Shown: positions 16-30,573, numbered from the stretch's first letter. The stretch: DNA of 30,573 bases from an uncultured Candidatus Saccharibacteria bacterium (GCA_964638435.1 CAZXAY010000010.1:1-30573), one strand, 5' to 3'. Program-made: numbers and translations. Notes: generated by a model from the sequence alone, not told the origin.

Positions 16-255
16 TTATATTCTATCTTTTAAATATCTTCTTCCAAAACCGGTTTTAAAATACTTTTCTCGTTTGATTGCCCTATTTTTATTCAAACAC
101 CCTTCGAAATAAACTAATACTAACGGTCTTCTTAGTTTTGTCGATTCATTTTTTCCATTATTGTGCTCAGTTAATCTCTTTTTTAAATCACTTGTAAAAC
201 CAATATATAATTTATTATCAACCTTACTTTTTAATACATATGTATAATAAAACAT
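16..255 (-). CDS. GIY-YIG nuclease family protein (small, UPF0213-like)
   Basis: 79 aa. Motif YIGFTSDLKKRLTEHN is typical of the GIY-YIG catalytic domain. ORF runs to the window edge. Confidence 0.65.
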   Translation of the reverse strand: MFYYTYVLKSKVDNKLYIGFTSDLKKRLTEHNNGKNESTKLRRPLVLVYFEGCLNKNRAIKREKYFKTGFGRRYLKDRI

Positions 256-4363: not shown

Positions 4364-4407
4364 TCTAGTAACAAGTAACCAGTGACCAGTGACGAGGAAT
4401 GTAAGAA

Positions 4408-5037
4408 ATGATCAATCAAATAATTAAAGAAGTAGAAAAATACCTAAAAGGGCGGAGTGATTCGCACGATATTGAGCATTGTCATCGTGTGGCTAAAATA
4501 GCCCGTGAGGTTGCCAAAGACTATAACAAAGCCGATACGGAGATTATTATTGCAGGGTGTTATTTACATGACGTAGGTTATACCAAAGCATCTTATGGTC
4601 ACCCGCATTGCGTGGCTGGAGTTAAAATTGCTCAAGATATTCTAGAAAAAATTGGTTACTCACAAGACAAAATTGATAAAATATGCGAAATAGTATTACA
4701 TCACGAAGATAGCAAATTTGGCATAAAATACCAGCCTAATCTAGAAACTAGAATAGTCCAAGATGCTGATGCAATTGATGGCTTTGGAGCTGTTGGGCTA
4801 TCAAGATTTTTCCAATTCGCTGGCTCAACTAATATGCCTCTTTGGATTCCCAGTTACAAAAAAGAACCAAAGATAATTTATGAAAATATAAGTATAATCC
4901 ATAACATCGAGGCAGTGATTAAATATGCTGGTGAAATTTGTACTACAAAGCTTGGTAAAAAATTGTTTAAATATCGCCTAAAGGTAATGAAAAGTTTTGT
5001 TAAAGAATTTAAAAAAGAATGGACCACCCAGATATAA
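4408..5037 (+). CDS. HD-domain phosphohydrolase (possible 5'-deoxynucleotidase)
   Basis: H..H...HD motif: HCHRVAKIA ... YLHDVGY ... LHHED. 209 aa. Sits in the dNMP/dTMP metabolic context. Confidence 0.7.
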   Translation: MINQIIKEVEKYLKGRSDSHDIEHCHRVAKIAREVAKDYNKADTEIIIAGCYLHDVGYTKASYGHPHCVAGVKIAQDILEKIGYSQDKIDKICEIVLHHEDSKFGIKYQPNLETRIVQDADAIDGFGAVGLSRFFQFAGSTNMPLWIPSYKKEPKIIYENISIIHNIEAVIKYAGEICTTKLGKKLFKYRLKVMKSFVKEFKKEWTTQI

Positions 5038-5048
5038 AATTTCATCAG

Positions 5049-5800
5049 TAACCTGTTATCACCCTCAAGGTGATAACAGGTTATCTACGATATTTTGTTT
5101 ATATGAATTATAGAAAACAACCATTAGTTAATGAAGGAATCTATCATATTCTGAATAAGAGTATCGCAGAGTATAAAATTTTTAGTAATAATTTTCACTT
5201 TAGAAGAATGATGCAATTATTAGTTTACTATCAATATGCCAATGTACCAGTAAGATATTCTTATTTTATTAAGCTTGATCCACAAGAGCAAGATGAAGTA
5301 TTTAGATATTTACAGATAAAAAATGATAAACTTGTTGATATAATTTCCTATTGCCTTATGCCTACCCATTATCATCTTATTTTAAAACAGTTATTGAAAG
5401 GTGGTATTTCAAAATATATCAATTTAATCCAAAACAGCTATGCAAAATATTTTAACATAAAACACGATCGAAATGGCCCATTATGGCAAGGGTATTTTAA
5501 AAATGTATTAGTAGATACAGATGAACAACTTTTGCATTTAACTCGCTACCAACACATAAATCCAGTATCTGCTGGTTTGGTAGAGGATCCTATTGAGTGG
5601 GAATATTCATCTTATAAAGAATATATAGGGAAAAAACAAACTAAAATTTGTAGTTATAATAATTTAATTGATGTCAGACCAAAAATATATAAAAGATTTG
5701 TTGAAAATAGAATTAGTTATCAGCGAGAATTAACAAGAATTAAAAAAATTATATTAGAATAAAAATATCAAACTTAACCTGAAATCACCTTGAGGGTGAT
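5049..5800 (+). mobile_element. REPtron-like unit: RAYT / IS200-like Y1 transposase gene flanked by inverted palindromes
   Basis: Left end: perfect 15-bp stem palindrome TAACCTGTTATCACC-CTCAA-GGTGATAACAGGTTA at 5049-5083. Right end: ATCACC-TTGAG-GGTGAT at 5784-5800. Its loop is the reverse complement of the left loop, and it is preceded by the same TAACCTG..ATCACC arm. Confidence 0.7.
5103..5762 (+). CDS. REP-associated tyrosine transposase (Transposase_17 / IS200-like HUH-Y1)
   Basis: HUH motif in YCLMPTHYHLIL. GPLWQGYF. C-terminal RYQHINPVSAGLVEDPIEWEYSSY matches the RAYT signature NPV.AGLV..P..W.WSS. The ORF-track GTG start at 5070 lies inside the left palindrome, so the ATG at 5103 is preferred. 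Confidence 0.75.
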   Translation: MNYRKQPLVNEGIYHILNKSIAEYKIFSNNFHFRRMMQLLVYYQYANVPVRYSYFIKLDPQEQDEVFRYLQIKNDKLVDIISYCLMPTHYHLILKQLLKGGISKYINLIQNSYAKYFNIKHDRNGPLWQGYFKNVLVDTDEQLLHLTRYQHINPVSAGLVEDPIEWEYSSYKEYIGKKQTKICSYNNLIDVRPKIYKRFVENRISYQRELTRIKKIILE

Positions 5801-5834
5801 ATAAGGTAGGCAATGAAATTTATGTGAGTAAAAT

Positions 5835-20030: not shown

Positions 20031-20242
20031 CCTGATGGGTCTGTCGCCAAACATCATTTTGGCTGAAAATTACCATATTTGGCTGTGGTTCGACTTTGCT
20101 CACCATCCTGAGCCTGTCGAAGGACAAACTTCATTATATTCCTCTGCTTATCACCTGATAGGCATCGTCATCTACTAAAGTTTTCGCTCAAATGTGATTA
20201 ATTTTCATTCCCAAAGCACATTCGGCGACAGACCTCTGATAG
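20031..20242. mobile_element. MITE-like element with ~20-bp imperfect terminal inverted repeats
   Basis: CCTGATGGGTCTGTCGCC (20031-20048) versus reverse complement of GGCGACAGACCTCTGATAGG (20223-20242). The 11-bp core GGTCTGTCGCC / GGCGACAGACC is perfect. Internal CTGATAGG motif is repeated. No ORF. Confidence 0.4.
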
Positions 20243-20251
20243 GAAATCTAC

Positions 20252-20422
20252 CAAGATATTAACCTAAAAAATTCTTCTTGTCAAGAAGATTGCTAAATCT
20301 TAAATCATAAATCTAAAATCTAAAATTGTTTAGAGTACTTTTTTGAGATATTGGCCAGTAAAAGAAGTTTTTACTTTAACAACTTCTTCTGGAGTTCCTT
20401 GAGCAACAATTTGTCCGCCCAT
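20252..20422. repeat. 171-bp direct repeat (left copy) = target duplication of the IS
   Basis: Identical by eye to 22026-22196 (171 bp). Includes a copy of the last ~94 nt of uvrA plus downstream sequence. Confidence 0.85.
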
Positions 20423-22025
20423 CCCGACTTGTAACATTCTGTTTTTTAAAAGAAATTTGATTGATTATCTAACCATATAACTTGTTTCAAAACTCATTTT
20501 TTGTCATACTAATGGCATGTTTCATATTAGAATAACAAAAACTGCTTCATTATCAAGCGCTGTTCAAGTAGTTCGCTATGAACAACGTAGATTAATTGTT
20601 GTAAAACATATTGGTAGTGCCCATACCTCAGAAGATATTAAGGCGCTAAAATTAATTGCGCGCGAGTGGATAGAAAAGAAGTCTAAACAGCACTCTCTTT
20701 TCCTTGCACAAAAAACAACAGCTTCTCGATTTATCTCTTTGGAGAAAAGCCAGTTTTTGGGAACTCGTTATCCTTTTATTCATCAATTTCTGACCAAAAT
20801 ATCTAGTCGATTTAACTTTGAAAAATTAAATTGTAATTTACTTACCGATTTAGTGATTATCCGTATTATTGAGCCTGCGTCTCTTCTGCGTTCCACAGAG
20901 CTTTTAGACGAGTTGTTTGGTATTAAATATTGGCGTGAGGATTTCTATCGTTATTTGCCACATTTTATCGGCTGGAAAGAAAAAATAGAAGAATGTGCGC
21001 TAACTTTAGCAAAAAGAGAACTTAAGTTCAATTTTACACTCGTCTTTTATGATGTAACAACTTTGTATTTTGAATCATTTAAAGCTGATAATCTAAGAAA
21101 ACCTGGTTTTTCTAAAGATGGTAAATCTGCCCAACCTCAAATCTTAATCGGTTTGCTTGTAAGCTCTGAGGGGTTTCCTGTCGCCTATGAAATATATGAG
21201 GGCAATAAATTTGAAGGTCATACTTTAATTCCTTCTATCTCAAATTTTCAACAAAAATATGAGATCAAAACACTGACAGTTGTCGCTGATGCAGCCATGA
21301 TCAGTTCTGACAATATTAAAGCCCTAAAAGGAAATCAGCTTTCATACATCGTGGGTGCTAGAATTACTAATCTTCCCAAGTTAGTAATAGATGAGATTAA
21401 TAAGAAACTTAAACCTGAAGATGGGACAACCATCAGAATAATATCCAAACATGGAATTTTAGTCTGCGGTTTTTCAACTAAGAGGTATAACAAGGACAAA
21501 CGCGAGATGGAAAAGCAAATCGCTAAAGCAACAATATTACTTAAGTATCCGACAAAAGCCAAGCGTACAAAATTTGTTAAAAGTAAAACTAAAACTAGCT
21601 TTGAGTTAAACAAAACGTTAATTGAAAAAACTAAAAAACTCCTTGGGATTAAAGGATATTACACAAATCTTAATGAAGTTGATGATCAAACTATCATCGC
21701 CAGGTATCATGATCTTTGGCACGTTGAACAGGCTTTTAGAATAGCAAAAAATGATCTCGAGACTCGTCCCGTTTATCATTTTAAAGAAGATCCTATTAAA
21801 GTTCATATTATGATCTGCTTTATGGCTTTGGCCGTTTGCAAATATCTAGAGATCAAAACTGGTAAATCAATTAAGAACATTATCAAATTATTTAAAAGTG
21901 TGGTAGATGCCCGAATTCTGAATACTGTAACAAGAGAAGAAATCACAATGCAATCTGTTATATCAAAAGAAGTGAAAGATATTTTAGAAATATTAAGATT
22001 GCCATACTAATTGTTACAAGTCGGG
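20423..22025 (+). mobile_element. IS4-superfamily / IS1634-family insertion sequence
   Basis: Terminal inverted repeats CCCGACTTGTAACA (20423-20436) and TGTTACAAGTCGGG (22012-22025), 14/14. Single DDE transposase ORF. Flanked by a 171-bp direct duplication. Long variable target duplications are a hallmark of IS1634-like elements. Confidence 0.8.
20517..22010 (+). CDS. DDE transposase, IS4/IS1634 family
   Basis: 497 aa. Candidate catalytic D in FYDVTTLYFES and VADAAM. C-terminal YHDLWHVEQAFRIAK fits the IS4 Y-x2-[R]-x3-E-x6-K signature (here L replaces R). Confidence 0.75.
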   Translation: MFHIRITKTASLSSAVQVVRYEQRRLIVVKHIGSAHTSEDIKALKLIAREWIEKKSKQHSLFLAQKTTASRFISLEKSQFLGTRYPFIHQFLTKISSRFNFEKLNCNLLTDLVIIRIIEPASLLRSTELLDELFGIKYWREDFYRYLPHFIGWKEKIEECALTLAKRELKFNFTLVFYDVTTLYFESFKADNLRKPGFSKDGKSAQPQILIGLLVSSEGFPVAYEIYEGNKFEGHTLIPSISNFQQKYEIKTLTVVADAAMISSDNIKALKGNQLSYIVGARITNLPKLVIDEINKKLKPEDGTTIRIISKHGILVCGFSTKRYNKDKREMEKQIAKATILLKYPTKAKRTKFVKSKTKTSFELNKTLIEKTKKLLGIKGYYTNLNEVDDQTIIARYHDLWHVEQAFRIAKNDLETRPVYHFKEDPIKVHIMICFMALAVCKYLEIKTGKSIKNIIKLFKSVVDARILNTVTREEITMQSVISKEVKDILEILRLPY

Positions 22026-22196
22026 AAGATATTAACCTAAAAAATTCTTCTTGTCAAGAAGATTGCTAAATCTTAAATCATAAATCTAAAATCTAAAATT
22101 GTTTAGAGTACTTTTTTGAGATATTGGCCAGTAAAAGAAGTTTTTACTTTAACAACTTCTTCTGGAGTTCCTTGAGCAACAATTTGTCCGCCCATG
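22026..22196. repeat. 171-bp direct repeat (right copy), contiguous with intact uvrA 3' end
   Basis: Matches 20252-20422. Confidence 0.85.
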
Positions 22197-24601
22197 TCAC
22201 CACCGTCTGGTCCCATATCAATTATATGGTCAGCACATTTGATTACATCCATATTATGTTCGATGACTAAGACTGTATTACCTTTATCAACTAATGCCTG
22301 AAGGACTTTTAGTAAACGGTCTATATCTTCAAAATGTAAGCCAGTAGTTGGTTCATCAAGAATATACAAAGTTTGACCTGTATCTTGTCTAGCAAGCTCA
22401 GTAGCTAATTTAACACGTTGGGCCTCACCACCAGAGAGAGTTGTAGCTGATTGACCTAACTTCATATAACCAAGCCCAACAGCAGACAATACCGAAAGTT
22501 TAGTATTTAATATTGGTACGTCTTTAAAAAACTGCCAAACATCATCTATGGTCATTTCTAGAACATCAGCAATATTTTTGCCTTTATGGTAAATGTCTAA
22601 TACTTCCTTATTATATCTACGACCGTGACATGTATCACAAGTAATATAAACGTCTGGTAAAAAGTGCATTTCGAATTTAATAACCCCATCTCCTTTACAA
22701 TTTTCGCATCGACCACCTTTAACGTTAAAGGAAAAATGACCAGAATTATAGTTTCTTTTAACTGCTTCTGTGTTAGATGTAAAAATTTCTCTTATTGTTG
22801 TAAAAACACCAGTATAAGTTGCGGGGTTACTGCGAGGTGTTCTACCAATAGCCGATTGGTCAATGTTAATTACTTTATCAATAAATTGGGTACCAATTAA
22901 TGCTTTGTGAGCTCCGGGCTCAGATTTGGCATGGTGGAATTTTTTAGACAATGCTTTAGCGAGAATGTCAGAAACCAAGGTTGATTTACCACTTCCAGAA
23001 ACACCTGTAATACAAGTAAATGTGTTCAAGGGTATCTTTACGTCAATATTTTTTAAATTATGTTCTGTAGCACCTTTAATAATTAAATACTTATTATTTG
23101 TTGTGCGGCGTTTTTTTGGAATCATTATCCCTTTTTTACCAGTTAAATATTGACCAGTTAATGAATTGGGATCATTTTTAATCTCTTGGGGTGTCCCTTG
23201 AGCCATCACTTTACCGCCTAGCTCGCCGGCTCCGGGGCCAATATCAATTATATAATCTGCAGCATCCATAGTTTGTTTATCATGTTCGACTACAATTACT
23301 GTATTATCTAGGTCGCGTAACCTAAATAGATTTTTAATTAATTTTTCTTGATCCCTTTCGTGTAACCCAATGGATGGTTCATCAAGAATATATATAACAC
23401 CCGTTAGATATGATCCAAGTTGAGTTGCCAGACGAATTCTTTGTGCTTCACCACCAGCAAGACTTTCAGCATTACGATCAAGAGTTAGGTAGGATAAACC
23501 AACTTCGATGATAAATTTTAACCTTTTAATAATATCATTAACGATTTGCTCAACTATCTTTTTTTCTGTAACAGACAATTTTGAATTTAATTTATTAAAA
23601 AAATCTAATATTTGGGTAATATTCATTGCAGAAATTTCTACAATATTTTTTTTATCGATTGTAACTTTTAAGATCTCTTGTTTAAGTCTTTTACCACCAC
23701 AAACTGGGCAGATTCGTTTAACCATATATTTTTCGATTTCGTTTTGAATATAATCAGAATCTGTTTCTTTGTACCTTTTTTCTAGGTTTGGGATTACTCC
23801 TTCAAAATATTTACTATCTGTTGGTACACCAAAACCATCTAAAATAACTTTTCTAATTTGTTTTGTAAGATGACTCACAGGTGTTTCTAAACTAAAATGA
23901 AAATCTTGTGCAAGTTTTTGCAAAGCTTTATTATACCAACTACTATGTGATGTTGTCCGGCTCCAAGGTCTAATAGCACCTTCGGATATGGTAAGTCTTA
24001 AATTTGGTAAAACTAACTTAGGATCGACTTCTAATCTTTCTCCAAGCCCTTGACAACCAGGGCAGGCACCGCGAGGACTATTAAAAGAAAAGGAACTAAT
24101 ATTAAGTTCAGAAAGAGAATATTGACAATCTAGACATTGATAAATAGTTTGGTTGATTTTATTATTGGCAACTTTTTTGTCTTCTTCATCAGGCTTGATT
24201 ATTTCTATTTCGCGTTTAACTAATTTTTTGCCACAATTAATGCAGTGCGAGATACCAATCCTTGTAAATAATAACCTAAGATAGTCATATATCTCACTCA
24301 TCGTGCCAACAGTGGAACGGGGACTAATACCAGCAGTTTTTTGATCTATAGATAGAGCTGGGGATAAACCTTCTATATAATCAACGTCAGGTTTTTCTAA
24401 TGATCCTAAAAATTGTCTGGCATAATTTGATAATGATTCAACATATCTGCGTTGCCCTTCGGCATATATTGTGTCAAATGCTAGTGACGATTTACCACTA
24501 CCAGAAATACCGGTTAATACAGTAAGTTGGTTTCTAGGAATTTCAACAGTAATATTTTTTAGATTATGTACTCGAGCGCCAACAACTTTGATTTTATCCA
24601 T
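22103..24601 (-). CDS. uvrA: UvrA-family ABC ATPase, short form lacking the UvrB-binding domain
   Basis: Two ABC ATPase modules ([20 protein letters not shown]). Signature LSGGE and Zn modules ([16 protein letters not shown]). Only about 35 aa separate CINCGKK from CLDCQYS, where E. coli UvrA carries the ~130-aa UvrB-binding domain. 832 aa. Confidence 0.8.
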
Positions 24602-24691
24602 ACGGTCCTTAAAACAAATTCAAATTTCAAAACTCAAATTTTAAATCAAATCCAAATGTTTAAATGTTTTAAAATTAGAATTTAATTAATT

Positions 24692-24724
24692 GACCTGCCC
24701 GACATGCCAGTCATGGCAGGCGGG
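24692..24724 (+). repeat. REP-like nested-hairpin element (part of a ~80-bp repeated block at 24653-24733)
   Basis: GACCTGCCCGACATGCCAGTCATGGCAGGCGGG. Outer stem CCTGCC/GGCAGG and inner stem TGCCA-GTCA-TGGCA. The block is repeated at 30501-30573, with an inverted copy at 10931-10964. Confidence 0.8.
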
Positions 24725-24882
24725 TTAAAAATTTATAATTTCAAATTTGAATTTTATTCATTTGTTGAATTACTTTTCCAAGCATATCATATTTGTCAAG
24801 ATTATGCAAGTAGAGCAATACCCTTGCCAAAAGATAAAAAAATGTTATAGTAAAAACAAGTAAAATAAATATTTATTAATCA

Positions 24883-25397: not shown

Positions 25398-25478
25398 CGC
25401 CACTAATTTTAATACACTAATTTCACTAATAATTCGTGATATTTGTGAAAATATATTAGTGGAGATTAATACAATAAA
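25398..25478 (+). promoter_or_regulatory. repeated 5' leader element, copy A (CACTAAT repeats ... ATTAGTGGAGATTAATACAATA)
   Basis: About 80% identical over about 75 nt to 26813-26894. Three CACTAAT direct repeats and a distal inverted ATTAGTG, which can form a long-range stem. Confidence 0.5.
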
Positions 25479-26812: not shown

Positions 26813-26894
26813 ACCACTAATACACAGATTTCACTAATATCACTAATCATCCGTGTAATTCGTGTAATAGAATTAGTGGAGATTAATACAATAT
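26813..26894 (+). promoter_or_regulatory. repeated 5' leader element, copy B, between infC and rpmI
   Basis: CCACTAAT...TTCACTAATATCACTAAT...CGTG..CGTG...ATTAGTGGAGATTAATACAATA. Followed by AGGAA RBS and the rpmI ATG. Confidence 0.5.
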
Positions 26895-27642: not shown

Positions 27643-28044
27643 TCACTTTTTTCTAAAACTCGTCCATAAATATAAAACTATTCCTACAAACAGATATAAA
27701 TCAGCCAAGTTAAAATGATTTAAGTTAAAAAAACTAAAAAAATCAATAACAAATCCATGCCAAACCCTATCGATGATATTAGATATGGCCCCTGCGATAA
27801 TTAGCATAATTGACCAACGATATATAGGTTTTTTAAGATCAGAATTAAAAACTATCCAGATCATAGAAATTATTCCAATAACCAATAACCAATAACCAAT
27901 AACTTGATTATTTACCCAACCAAATATTGTGCCTTTATTACTTGTAATATATGTAGAAAACCTATTAAACATTAACCATTTTAAAAATTGATCCATCAGG
28001 ACCAAAACTATTGTAAATATAAATAACTGATGTTTATTAATCAT
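27643..28044 (-). CDS. lspA: lipoprotein signal peptidase (signal peptidase II)
   Basis: 133 aa, 4 TM. Motifs NKGTIFGW, IIDRVWHGFVIDF, FNLAD are characteristic of LspA. Confidence 0.8.
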   Translation of the reverse strand: MINKHQLFIFTIVLVLMDQFLKWLMFNRFSTYITSNKGTIFGWVNNQVIGYWLLVIGIISMIWIVFNSDLKKPIYRWSIMLIIAGAISNIIDRVWHGFVIDFFSFFNLNHFNLADLYLFVGIVLYLWTSFRKK

Positions 28045-30450: not shown

Positions 30451-30532
30451 AATCTCCTCATAAAAATTCAAAATTCAAATTTGTAACCAAATTCAAAATT
30501 CAAATGTTTTAAAAATTGGAATTTAATTAATT

Positions 30533-30565
30533 GACCTGCCCGACATGCCAGTCATGGCAGGCGGG
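30533..30565 (+). repeat. REP-like nested-hairpin element, third copy (block 30501-30573)
   Basis: Identical to 24692-24724. The flanking AT-rich block CAAATGTTTTAAAA.TTGGAATTTAATTAATT is shared with 24653-24691. Confidence 0.8.
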
Positions 30566-30573
30566 TTAAAAAT

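Follow-up and report, generated by a model that had tools for sequence, protein, structure and literature searches.

The stretch of DNA analysed here (the window; 30,573 nt, ~33% GC) carries three copies of a short GC-rich palindrome, which we refer to as the core. The earlier note had described three copies, one of them inverted, and this description holds. Copy 1 (24694-24724, plus strand) occupies the spacer that separates two divergent genes, uvrA (22103-24601, minus strand) and a bactofilin gene (24930, plus strand), at 92 nt from the uvrA start (24601). Copy 2 (30535-30565, plus strand) is located 84 nt upstream of the start of a minus-strand PRTase gene (30450), and the contig stops 8 nt past it. 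Copy 3 (10931-10962, minus strand) is found between thrS, which ends at 10883, and an ORF of 118 aa (11053). It is 47 nt past the thrS stop and also, as had gone unremarked, 90 nt upstream of the co-oriented 118-aa ORF. All three window copies are placed 84-92 nt upstream of a co-oriented start codon.

Copies 1 and 2 have the same 31-nt sequence, CCTGCCCGACATGCCAGTCATGGCAGGCGGG, which can be divided into CCTGCC-CGAC-ATGCCA-GTC-A-TGGCAGG-CGGG. Copy 3 is 32 nt long, with one additional G within the loop segment, and the GC-rich core (31/32 nt) is all that it has in common with the other two. In shuffled sequences, no match to the 31-nt core is expected in the window. Similarity between copies 1 and 2 extends over 111 nt (24622-24732 versus 30463-30573, 86% identity) and includes their AT-rich left flanks (24622-24693 and 30463-30534, both plus strand, 86% identity). 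The repeats previously reported beside these two copies are indeed present, as AT-rich 7-nt tandem arrays that flank both of them. In copy 1, the left flank contains CAAATTT repeats (24615-24646), its proximal part being AAAATTAGAATTTA, and the right flank (24725-24756, plus strand) consists of 4.1 units of AAAATTT and is 80% complementary to 24616-24645. The left flank of copy 2 contains 6.4 units of AAAATTC (30463-30504). The copy 3 hairpin is lengthened by the local inverted repeats TTCTTA (10924-10929) and TAAGAA (10965-10970). Seven nucleotides is the commonest tandem-repeat period in the window, and core-less 7-nt arrays occur in several other spacers (896-939, 1385-1411, 4374-4393, 20294-20326, 22067-22099 and 27875-27903).

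The window also contains other repeats and an unusual gene. Two exact copies of a 170-nt direct repeat (20253-20422 and 22026-22195) enclose a 1.6-kb IS (20253-22195 with the repeats), which encodes a 497-aa DDE_Tnp_1 transposase (20517-22010) and has perfect 14-bp terminal inverted repeats (CCCGACTTGTAACA and TGTTACAAGTCGGG). The 170-nt repeat takes in the last ~93 nt of uvrA, which is intact (832 aa, the same length as in the related locus L205), and the arrangement suggests insertion of an IS at the 3' end of uvrA with a target duplication of unusual length. In the infC-rpmI-rplT region, a 62-nt direct repeat (25415-25476 and 26832-26893, 82% identity, CACTAAT...ATTAGTGGAGATTAATACAATA) immediately precedes both a DAGK-like gene and rpmI (L35), and may be a shared leader or promoter element. 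An ORF of 721 aa (11614-13779) has matches to the Major Vault Protein domains of eukaryotes (MVP_shoulder, Vault repeats and Band_7) and lies in a region with a GC content of 0.44-0.45 versus ~0.33 elsewhere. A vault-protein homologue is unusual in a CPR bacterium.

The core was searched for in GTDB representatives, one genome per species, with the pattern CCTGCC-N4-8-TGCCA-N3-5-TGGCAGGCGGG, which matched at least 117 stretches. Among Patescibacteria, hosts were found in Magasanik-, Davies-, Levy-, Woyke-, Falkow-, Moran-, Zambryski-, Curtiss-, Berkel-, Kuenen-, Kerfeld- and Vogelbacteria, as well as in Paceibacterota and Saccharibacteria. Outside the CPR, the core was found in Desulfobacterales, other Desulfobacterota and a few others. 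It is spread across many genomes of Patescibacteria and Desulfobacterota with its sequence kept: between lineages the flanks are unrelated, and the core is ~90-100% identical. The earlier note had considered such elements uncommon in CPR-type genomes and had allowed that these copies might be the only ones and not conserved in related genomes. The presence of the same core in many Patescibacteria classes and in many other genomes contradicts both. Some matches are in records named "uncultured Gammaproteobacteria", "Anaerolineales" or "archaeon", whose flanks match CPR or Desulfobacterales contigs, and these records are probably mislabelled or mis-binned. A few high-GC matches, for example in Komagataeibacter, Bryobacteraceae and Bacteroidales, resemble chance occurrences.

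The uvrA loci examined from other bacteria, 741 kb in all, contained no core. The uvrA-based metagenome scan retrieved mostly distant bacteria, which serve as a negative control, and one real relative (L123). The consensus core had no match in 72,556 plasmids (7.3 Gb) or in 50,697 phages (2.3 Gb), and only three core-bearing contigs were found in IMG/VR, one of them being the same contig as a Deltaproteobacteria MAG. Decayed copies are few, with 19 partial versus 128 intact members retrieved by nhmmer. The family is mostly intergenic. Nearly all of the 8-kb loci contain a single core, with several copies per genome elsewhere, and the window has three in 30.6 kb. About 11 of the cores in the listed matches, copy 2 of the window included, are within 130 nt of a contig end, which fits a multicopy repeat that breaks assemblies. 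Full-text searches of the accessible literature for the core sequences and for REP-like elements of CPR returned nothing relevant.

The nested double hairpin originally drawn for the core cannot form, as its GGCAGG and TGGCA segments overlap. The minimum free energy fold of the plus strand of copy 1 pairs CCUGCC with GGCGGG (one G-U) and UGCCA with UGGCA, leaving a 5-nt bulge. When single sequences are folded, the two strands yield different hairpins, and hairpin stability z-scores range from -2.8 to -4.6. Among 128 family members, covariation was sought in the two segments that the search pattern leaves free, and these covary as CGCC/GGC(G), CGAC/GTC, CGCA/TGCG and GCT/AGC. The fold tested on 51 distinct cores pairs CCTGCC with GGCAGG and has an inner stem of 3-4 bp; its loop, (A)GTGCCA, measures 6-7 nt, its bulge 1-2 nt, and the CGGG tail at the 3' end is unpaired. 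Its pair 9:19 shows compensatory changes (CG 27, AU 12, GU 2), and its covariation score of 0.097, versus 0.052 in shuffles, was reached by none of the 500 shuffles. For copy 1, the comparative data accordingly favour CCTGCC:GGCAGG plus GAC:GTC over the minimum free energy fold. The alternative fold, CCCGCC:GGCGGG plus TGCCA:TGGCA, has no testable covariation in the 51 cores, and one of its pairs is broken in 17 of them. Since the search pattern fixes the outer stems, the loop and the tail, independent covariation support is limited to the inner stem. Loop and tail are conserved though unpaired. On the opposite strand, the core reads as a CCCG tag and then a hairpin, and a tag followed by a hairpin is the general architecture of REPs (PMC3733652). 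All six reading frames of the core are free of stop codons. At the gathering threshold, an Rfam scan of the window retrieved RNase P and one tRNA only, and with E-value thresholds neither the copy 1 region nor ten core-bearing loci gave a match at the cores.

Locus L205 is syntenic with the window from uvrA through the PRTase gene. In the uvrA-bactofilin spacer, the core is absent from L205 and from the other syntenic Berkelbacteria relatives (L204, L123 and L210), and most of the AT-rich repeats are likewise missing from the spacer in all four. The block conserved among relatives starts at TTGTTGAATT...TTGTCAAGATTATGCAAGTAG, to the right of copy 1, and AAAATTAGAATTTA is present without the core in L204. 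L203 and L210, which come from different samples, are ~99% identical over ~350 nt and are distinguished by a clean 20-nt indel (L203, 105-124) with no target duplication. The 20-mer, CCTGCCTGCCGGTAGGCAGG, is a sibling palindrome that has the CCTGCC/GGCAGG ends in common with the core. It was detected eight times in core-bearing CPR loci, twice in the Berkelbacteria relatives and never in controls; copies with GGCAGG are found at L205:11175 and, between the direct repeats ttgaattttgaact, at L105:2473. Because two loci that are ~99% identical differ by this clean indel, small palindromes of this kind must be mobile in the Berkelbacteria lineage now or have been so recently. Two further observations were made in these loci. 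Upstream of the bactofilin spacer, L203:1-65 is not uvrA but a segment (aattttcaatccaaaagcgtatttggcgacagtccc) that resembles window 20190-20250 and possibly marks where another dispersed element or an IS ends. At L205:10540-10560, the orthologous PRTase gene is preceded by a different 14-nt GC palindrome, CCGCCAGCTGGCGG, between AT-rich repeats of the ATTAGNA type, a setting like that of copy 2.

To find empty sites, cores were removed in silico and the joined flanks were compared by BLAST with all loci, which retrieved the same flanking repeats in contiguous, empty form. A precise core indel without target-site duplication was seen in at least 15 independent pairs. In the 17 pairs aligned, the difference is exactly the core, and target bases are neither duplicated nor lost beyond an ambiguity of 1-2 nt. 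Examples are L071/L059, L056/L090, L112/L119, L046/L026, L103, and L107 compared with window 20294-20321. The flanks attctggaca and agccagaatg are contiguous in L059 and separated by the core in L071, and the cagtttcct-gatgaaactg junction, empty in L090, is filled in L056. The outer hairpin made of CCTGCCCGCAATGCTTCGCAA and CGCGAGGCAGGCGGG is empty in L119, L120 and L122 and filled in L112 and L121. These comparisons define the mobile unit as exactly CCTGCC...GGCGGG, which enters DNA without duplicating or deleting target bases.

The core favours sites prone to become single-stranded, namely the apical loops of hairpins, its own copies included, and short tandem-repeat junctions. The apical loop of another hairpin is a frequent target, and cores nested in the loops of core-like hairpins were found in L096, L026, L042, L052 and L112. 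Tandem-repeat junctions are represented by L083/L079 and by L107 compared with the window. Perfect 7-nt direct repeats flank 7.5% of the cores versus 0.4% of control positions (p = 7.5e-9); because they are already present in the empty sites, they constitute target context and not target duplication. A purine precedes the core, at -1, in 81% of cases, and no fixed target word was found on either side. Some insertions are within genes. At L025:960-992 and L029:4700-4732, in two Desulfobacterales MAGs, a 33-nt core lies in frame and adds 11 aa (PRLPTPGTGGQ) to the C-terminal helix-turn-helix region of a protein with Y1_Tnp and DnaA_C domains. As separate observations, the TAAATCT array after uvrA in the window matches the core flanks in another CPR genome (L107), and in a Deltaproteobacteria/IMG-VR contig (L122:3400-8900; also in L119 and L120) a ~100-nt repeat with CTCTCACAGAG...CTCTGTGAGAG inverted repeats occupies every intergenic spacer, with or without a central core, in a cassette-like array.

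Overall, the GC-rich core is likely to be one member of a widespread family of mobile and selfish DNA palindromes that are ultra-small (31-33 bp) and non-autonomous. The selected structure would be the hairpin described above (CCTGCC:GGCAGG, an inner stem of 3-4 bp, the (A)GTGCCA loop and the unpaired CGGG tail). An enzyme acting in trans would recognise tag (CCCG, on the other strand) and hairpin in single-stranded form; the leading candidate for it is a nuclease of the HUH/Y1 type, RAYT- or IS200-like. A trans-acting HUH-type nuclease is our best guess because there is no target duplication, the targets are prone to be single-stranded and the core has a tag-plus-hairpin shape. In the window, all three copies would have inserted into intergenic spacers, that of copy 3 being the one downstream of thrS, and any effect of theirs on expression would be a by-product. 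Several observations sit less easily with a mobile palindrome. The stems other than the inner one are fixed by the search pattern, core orientation shows no replication-strand bias as judged by GC skew (50 vs 57), and an IS200/IS605-type route would need a fixed target tetranucleotide, whereas only the purine preference at -1 is seen.

No mobilising enzyme was found among the genes examined. The window encodes an IS200-like Y1_Tnp protein (5103-5762, 219 aa) with the HUH motif THYHLIL and the tyrosine motif LTRYQHINP. It forms part of an IS200-like or REPtron-like unit (5036-5821) with inverted hairpins of ~35 nt on both sides, TAACCTGTTATCACC-CTCAA-GGTGATAACAGGTTA at 5049-5083 and its partner at 5775-5809. 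The name given to one window protein places this contig (ACD_58C00177) in ACD58, a Berkelbacteria genome from the Rifle aquifer. At least three more, divergent, paralogues in ACD58 have their own AACC...GGTT hairpins (L207 and L209), and the Y1_Tnp gene of L056 also has its own, unrelated to the core. None of these Y1_Tnp genes (window, L207, L209 and L056) is flanked by cores, and a REPtron pairing of the core with the window gene or the ACD58 paralogues was ruled out by the different hairpins. Y1_Tnp genes were found near cores in a few Desulfobacterales loci, those of L025 and L029 having the core inside the gene. In L061, L064 and L102, cores have small GIY-YIG genes as neighbours, and the window has a stand-alone GIY-YIG gene (16-255, minus strand, 79 aa) with no core nearby. 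GIY-YIG was rejected as a linked gene, being common in CPR genomes and having no adjoining core in the window.

Selfish spread alone hardly explains that the 33-mer is near-identical across phyla with few decayed copies, a pattern suggestive of selection or of conserved host machinery that recognises it. As an alternative, the core could be a highly iterated, host-selected palindrome, comparable to HIP1, Chi, uptake sequences or parS, that does not transpose but is maintained and spread through its recognition by conserved recombination, repair, DNA-uptake or nucleoid proteins. Its extreme conservation across CPR classes and Desulfobacterota amid unrelated flanks, the scarcity of degraded copies and the conservation of the unpaired loop and tail speak for such a role. 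However, clean 31-33-nt indels, nested in the core itself and in other repeats, are unlike motifs driven by point mutation. The core is also absent from most bacteria and from the orthologous sites of close relatives, and the 121 loci revealed no associated gene. We regard host selection of this kind as unlikely.

The earlier note had raised the possibility of a shared regulatory role, given copies in two promoter regions, one of them that of uvrA. On this reading, uvrA, the PRTase gene and the 118-aa gene would have a cis-regulatory element in common, either an operator or an RNA hairpin in the 5' UTR. The uniform distance of the window copies from a start codon and the stability of the hairpin speak for it. 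Promoter-like sites for uvrA (minus strand, 24830-24801 and 24780-24751; consensus matches only) fall in the block conserved among relatives, upstream of copy 1, and because of their position copy 1 is probably transcribed inside a lengthened uvrA 5' UTR. Across loci, according to crude ORF calls, the CCTG end faces a gene start in 47 cases and a gene end in 26, a bias that weighs for regulation and against a mobile palindrome. Between co-directional genes, the two orientations are found 31 and 16 times, which is biased but not strict, and a further 11 cores are in divergent and seven in convergent spacers. Against regulation, the four syntenic relatives have neither the element nor most of its AT-rich repeats between uvrA and bactofilin, and cores border unrelated genes in every orientation, some of them lying in frame inside ORFs. 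All-against-all clustering of 1,459 ORFs from the 121 loci revealed no gene family enriched near cores, the largest protein cluster being present at nine of the 121 loci, and the neighbours have no common function. The core has no Rfam match, and its behaviour is that of a precise insertion. A regulatory role common to uvrA and its neighbours is not supported, and we consider a cis-regulatory element improbable. A sigma-54 promoter (TGGCAC...GC) was also considered and ruled out by hand, its spacing being 1-2 nt off.

An intrinsic terminator or insulator hairpin is very improbable. A GC-rich stem-loop in an AT-rich genome, the location of copy 3 shortly after the thrS stop and the 31 cores in one orientation between co-directional genes would suit this function. 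However, a T-run follows the core on neither strand, the base composition of the flanks reveals no U-tract and a terminator scan found no terminator-like site around copies 1 and 3; moreover, copy 1 occupies a divergent promoter region, and divergent contexts are at least as frequent as convergent ones. An assembly or sequencing artefact, or a chance palindrome, as the contig end next to copy 2 and the accidental look of some high-GC matches might suggest, can be practically dismissed, since the same core, with compensatory changes and structured variation, was recovered by dozens of independent projects and assemblers, chance alone would give no match in the window and a true multicopy repeat itself yields contig breaks at cores.

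The reading of the core as a mobile palindrome fits the window copies as insertions tolerated in spacers, with incidental effects on expression at most. More tentatively, the core and its 20-nt sibling might constitute an undescribed superfamily of the smallest known mobile DNAs, with CCTGCC...GGCAGG ends and a no-duplication mechanism aimed at hairpin loops and slipped tandem repeats. In that case, the near-identity between Patescibacteria and Desulfobacterota would point to a dedicated, horizontally shared enzyme or to conserved host replication or repair machinery. CPR genomes have a reputation for being streamlined and poor in repeats, and very small mobile repeats have been documented mainly as the SDRs of cyanobacteria and the REPs of proteobacteria. 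If confirmed, the present family would add the candidate phyla radiation to the documented hosts of such repeats. Unusually, a single 33-mer is conserved across phyla, and few of its copies are decayed. The core also offers a defined 31-33-nt hairpin substrate with exact ends for finding the insertion enzyme, and it explains contig breaks, spurious small ORFs and in-frame 11-aa insertions in MAGs of CPR and Desulfobacterota. Core hairpins should not be taken for regulators or terminators.

The earlier note had called the element REP/BIME-like or MITE-like. Its description as a dispersed, palindromic, REP-like intergenic repeat is retained, and presence/absence comparisons indicate that it is mobile; the MITE designation is not. 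Like REPs and REPINs, the core is a GC-rich imperfect palindrome of 20-40 bp, multicopy and mostly extragenic (Bertels & Rainey 2011, PMC3116915; Di Nocera et al. 2013, PMC3733652). It likewise has a conserved unpaired tetranucleotide at one stem end (CCCG/CGGG), some copies within genes and a presence that varies among related genomes, and the host genome of the window encodes Y1_Tnp proteins. The REP tag is a conserved unpaired GTAG (or CGTC) at the stem end (PMC3733652), whereas the core has neither, its tail being CGGG/CCCG. Unlike REPINs and BIMEs, cores are singletons and not inverted doublets, the window copies being 6-14 kb apart, and the RAYT (Y1_Tnp) genes examined are not flanked by the core. 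In addition, most REP families do not extend beyond one species or genus, whereas one core sequence is found across phyla. The comparison with REP/RAYT pairs thus holds for size, palindromy, copy number and extragenic location, but fails for the tag, the flanking RAYT gene and the doublets.

With MITEs, the core shares a non-autonomous and dispersed nature and inverted-repeat termini (CCTGCCCGC versus CCCGCCTGC, 7/9), and its generalised form can be written as CCTGCCCGC-[hairpin]-GCAGGCGGG. However, it has no terminal inverted repeats beyond the hairpin itself, no target-site duplication was observed in the filled and empty pairs, and its length is far below the usual 50-500 bp. The only DDE IS in the window has terminal inverted repeats (CCCGACTTGTAACA) unrelated to the core ends. 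Elements of the IS200/IS605 type have two different end hairpins, encode TnpA and always insert 3' of a fixed tetra- or pentanucleotide. The core is also defined by a hairpin, inserts without target duplication and prefers single-stranded targets, but it lacks the two end hairpins, an encoded TnpA and a fixed target word. Yeast mitochondrial GC clusters and the palindromic elements of Rickettsia (RPEs, 100-150 bp) are optional, nesting, short GC-rich palindromes of AT-rich genomes that can insert in frame into genes; their hosts and sequences are unlike those of the core.

The small repeats SDR1-8 of Nostoc and Anabaena, described by Elhai et al. in 2008, are reportedly 21-27 nt long, with hairpin potential, compensatory changes and precise insertion. 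They are also said to be self-nested, often within tandem heptamer repeats, and to have no known enzyme. SDRs are reportedly limited to one cyanobacterial subgroup, the heterocystous one, and the target of SDR5 is said to be the HIP1 octamer. The core and its sibling (20-33 nt) share with them the precise filled/empty insertion of fewer than 35 nt, the self-nesting and the embedding in heptamer repeats. In contrast to SDRs, the core spans many CPR classes and Desulfobacterota, has no fixed target sequence and is probably unrelated in sequence. By analogy, the core would most closely resemble, in its behaviour, the SDR elements of heterocystous cyanobacteria.
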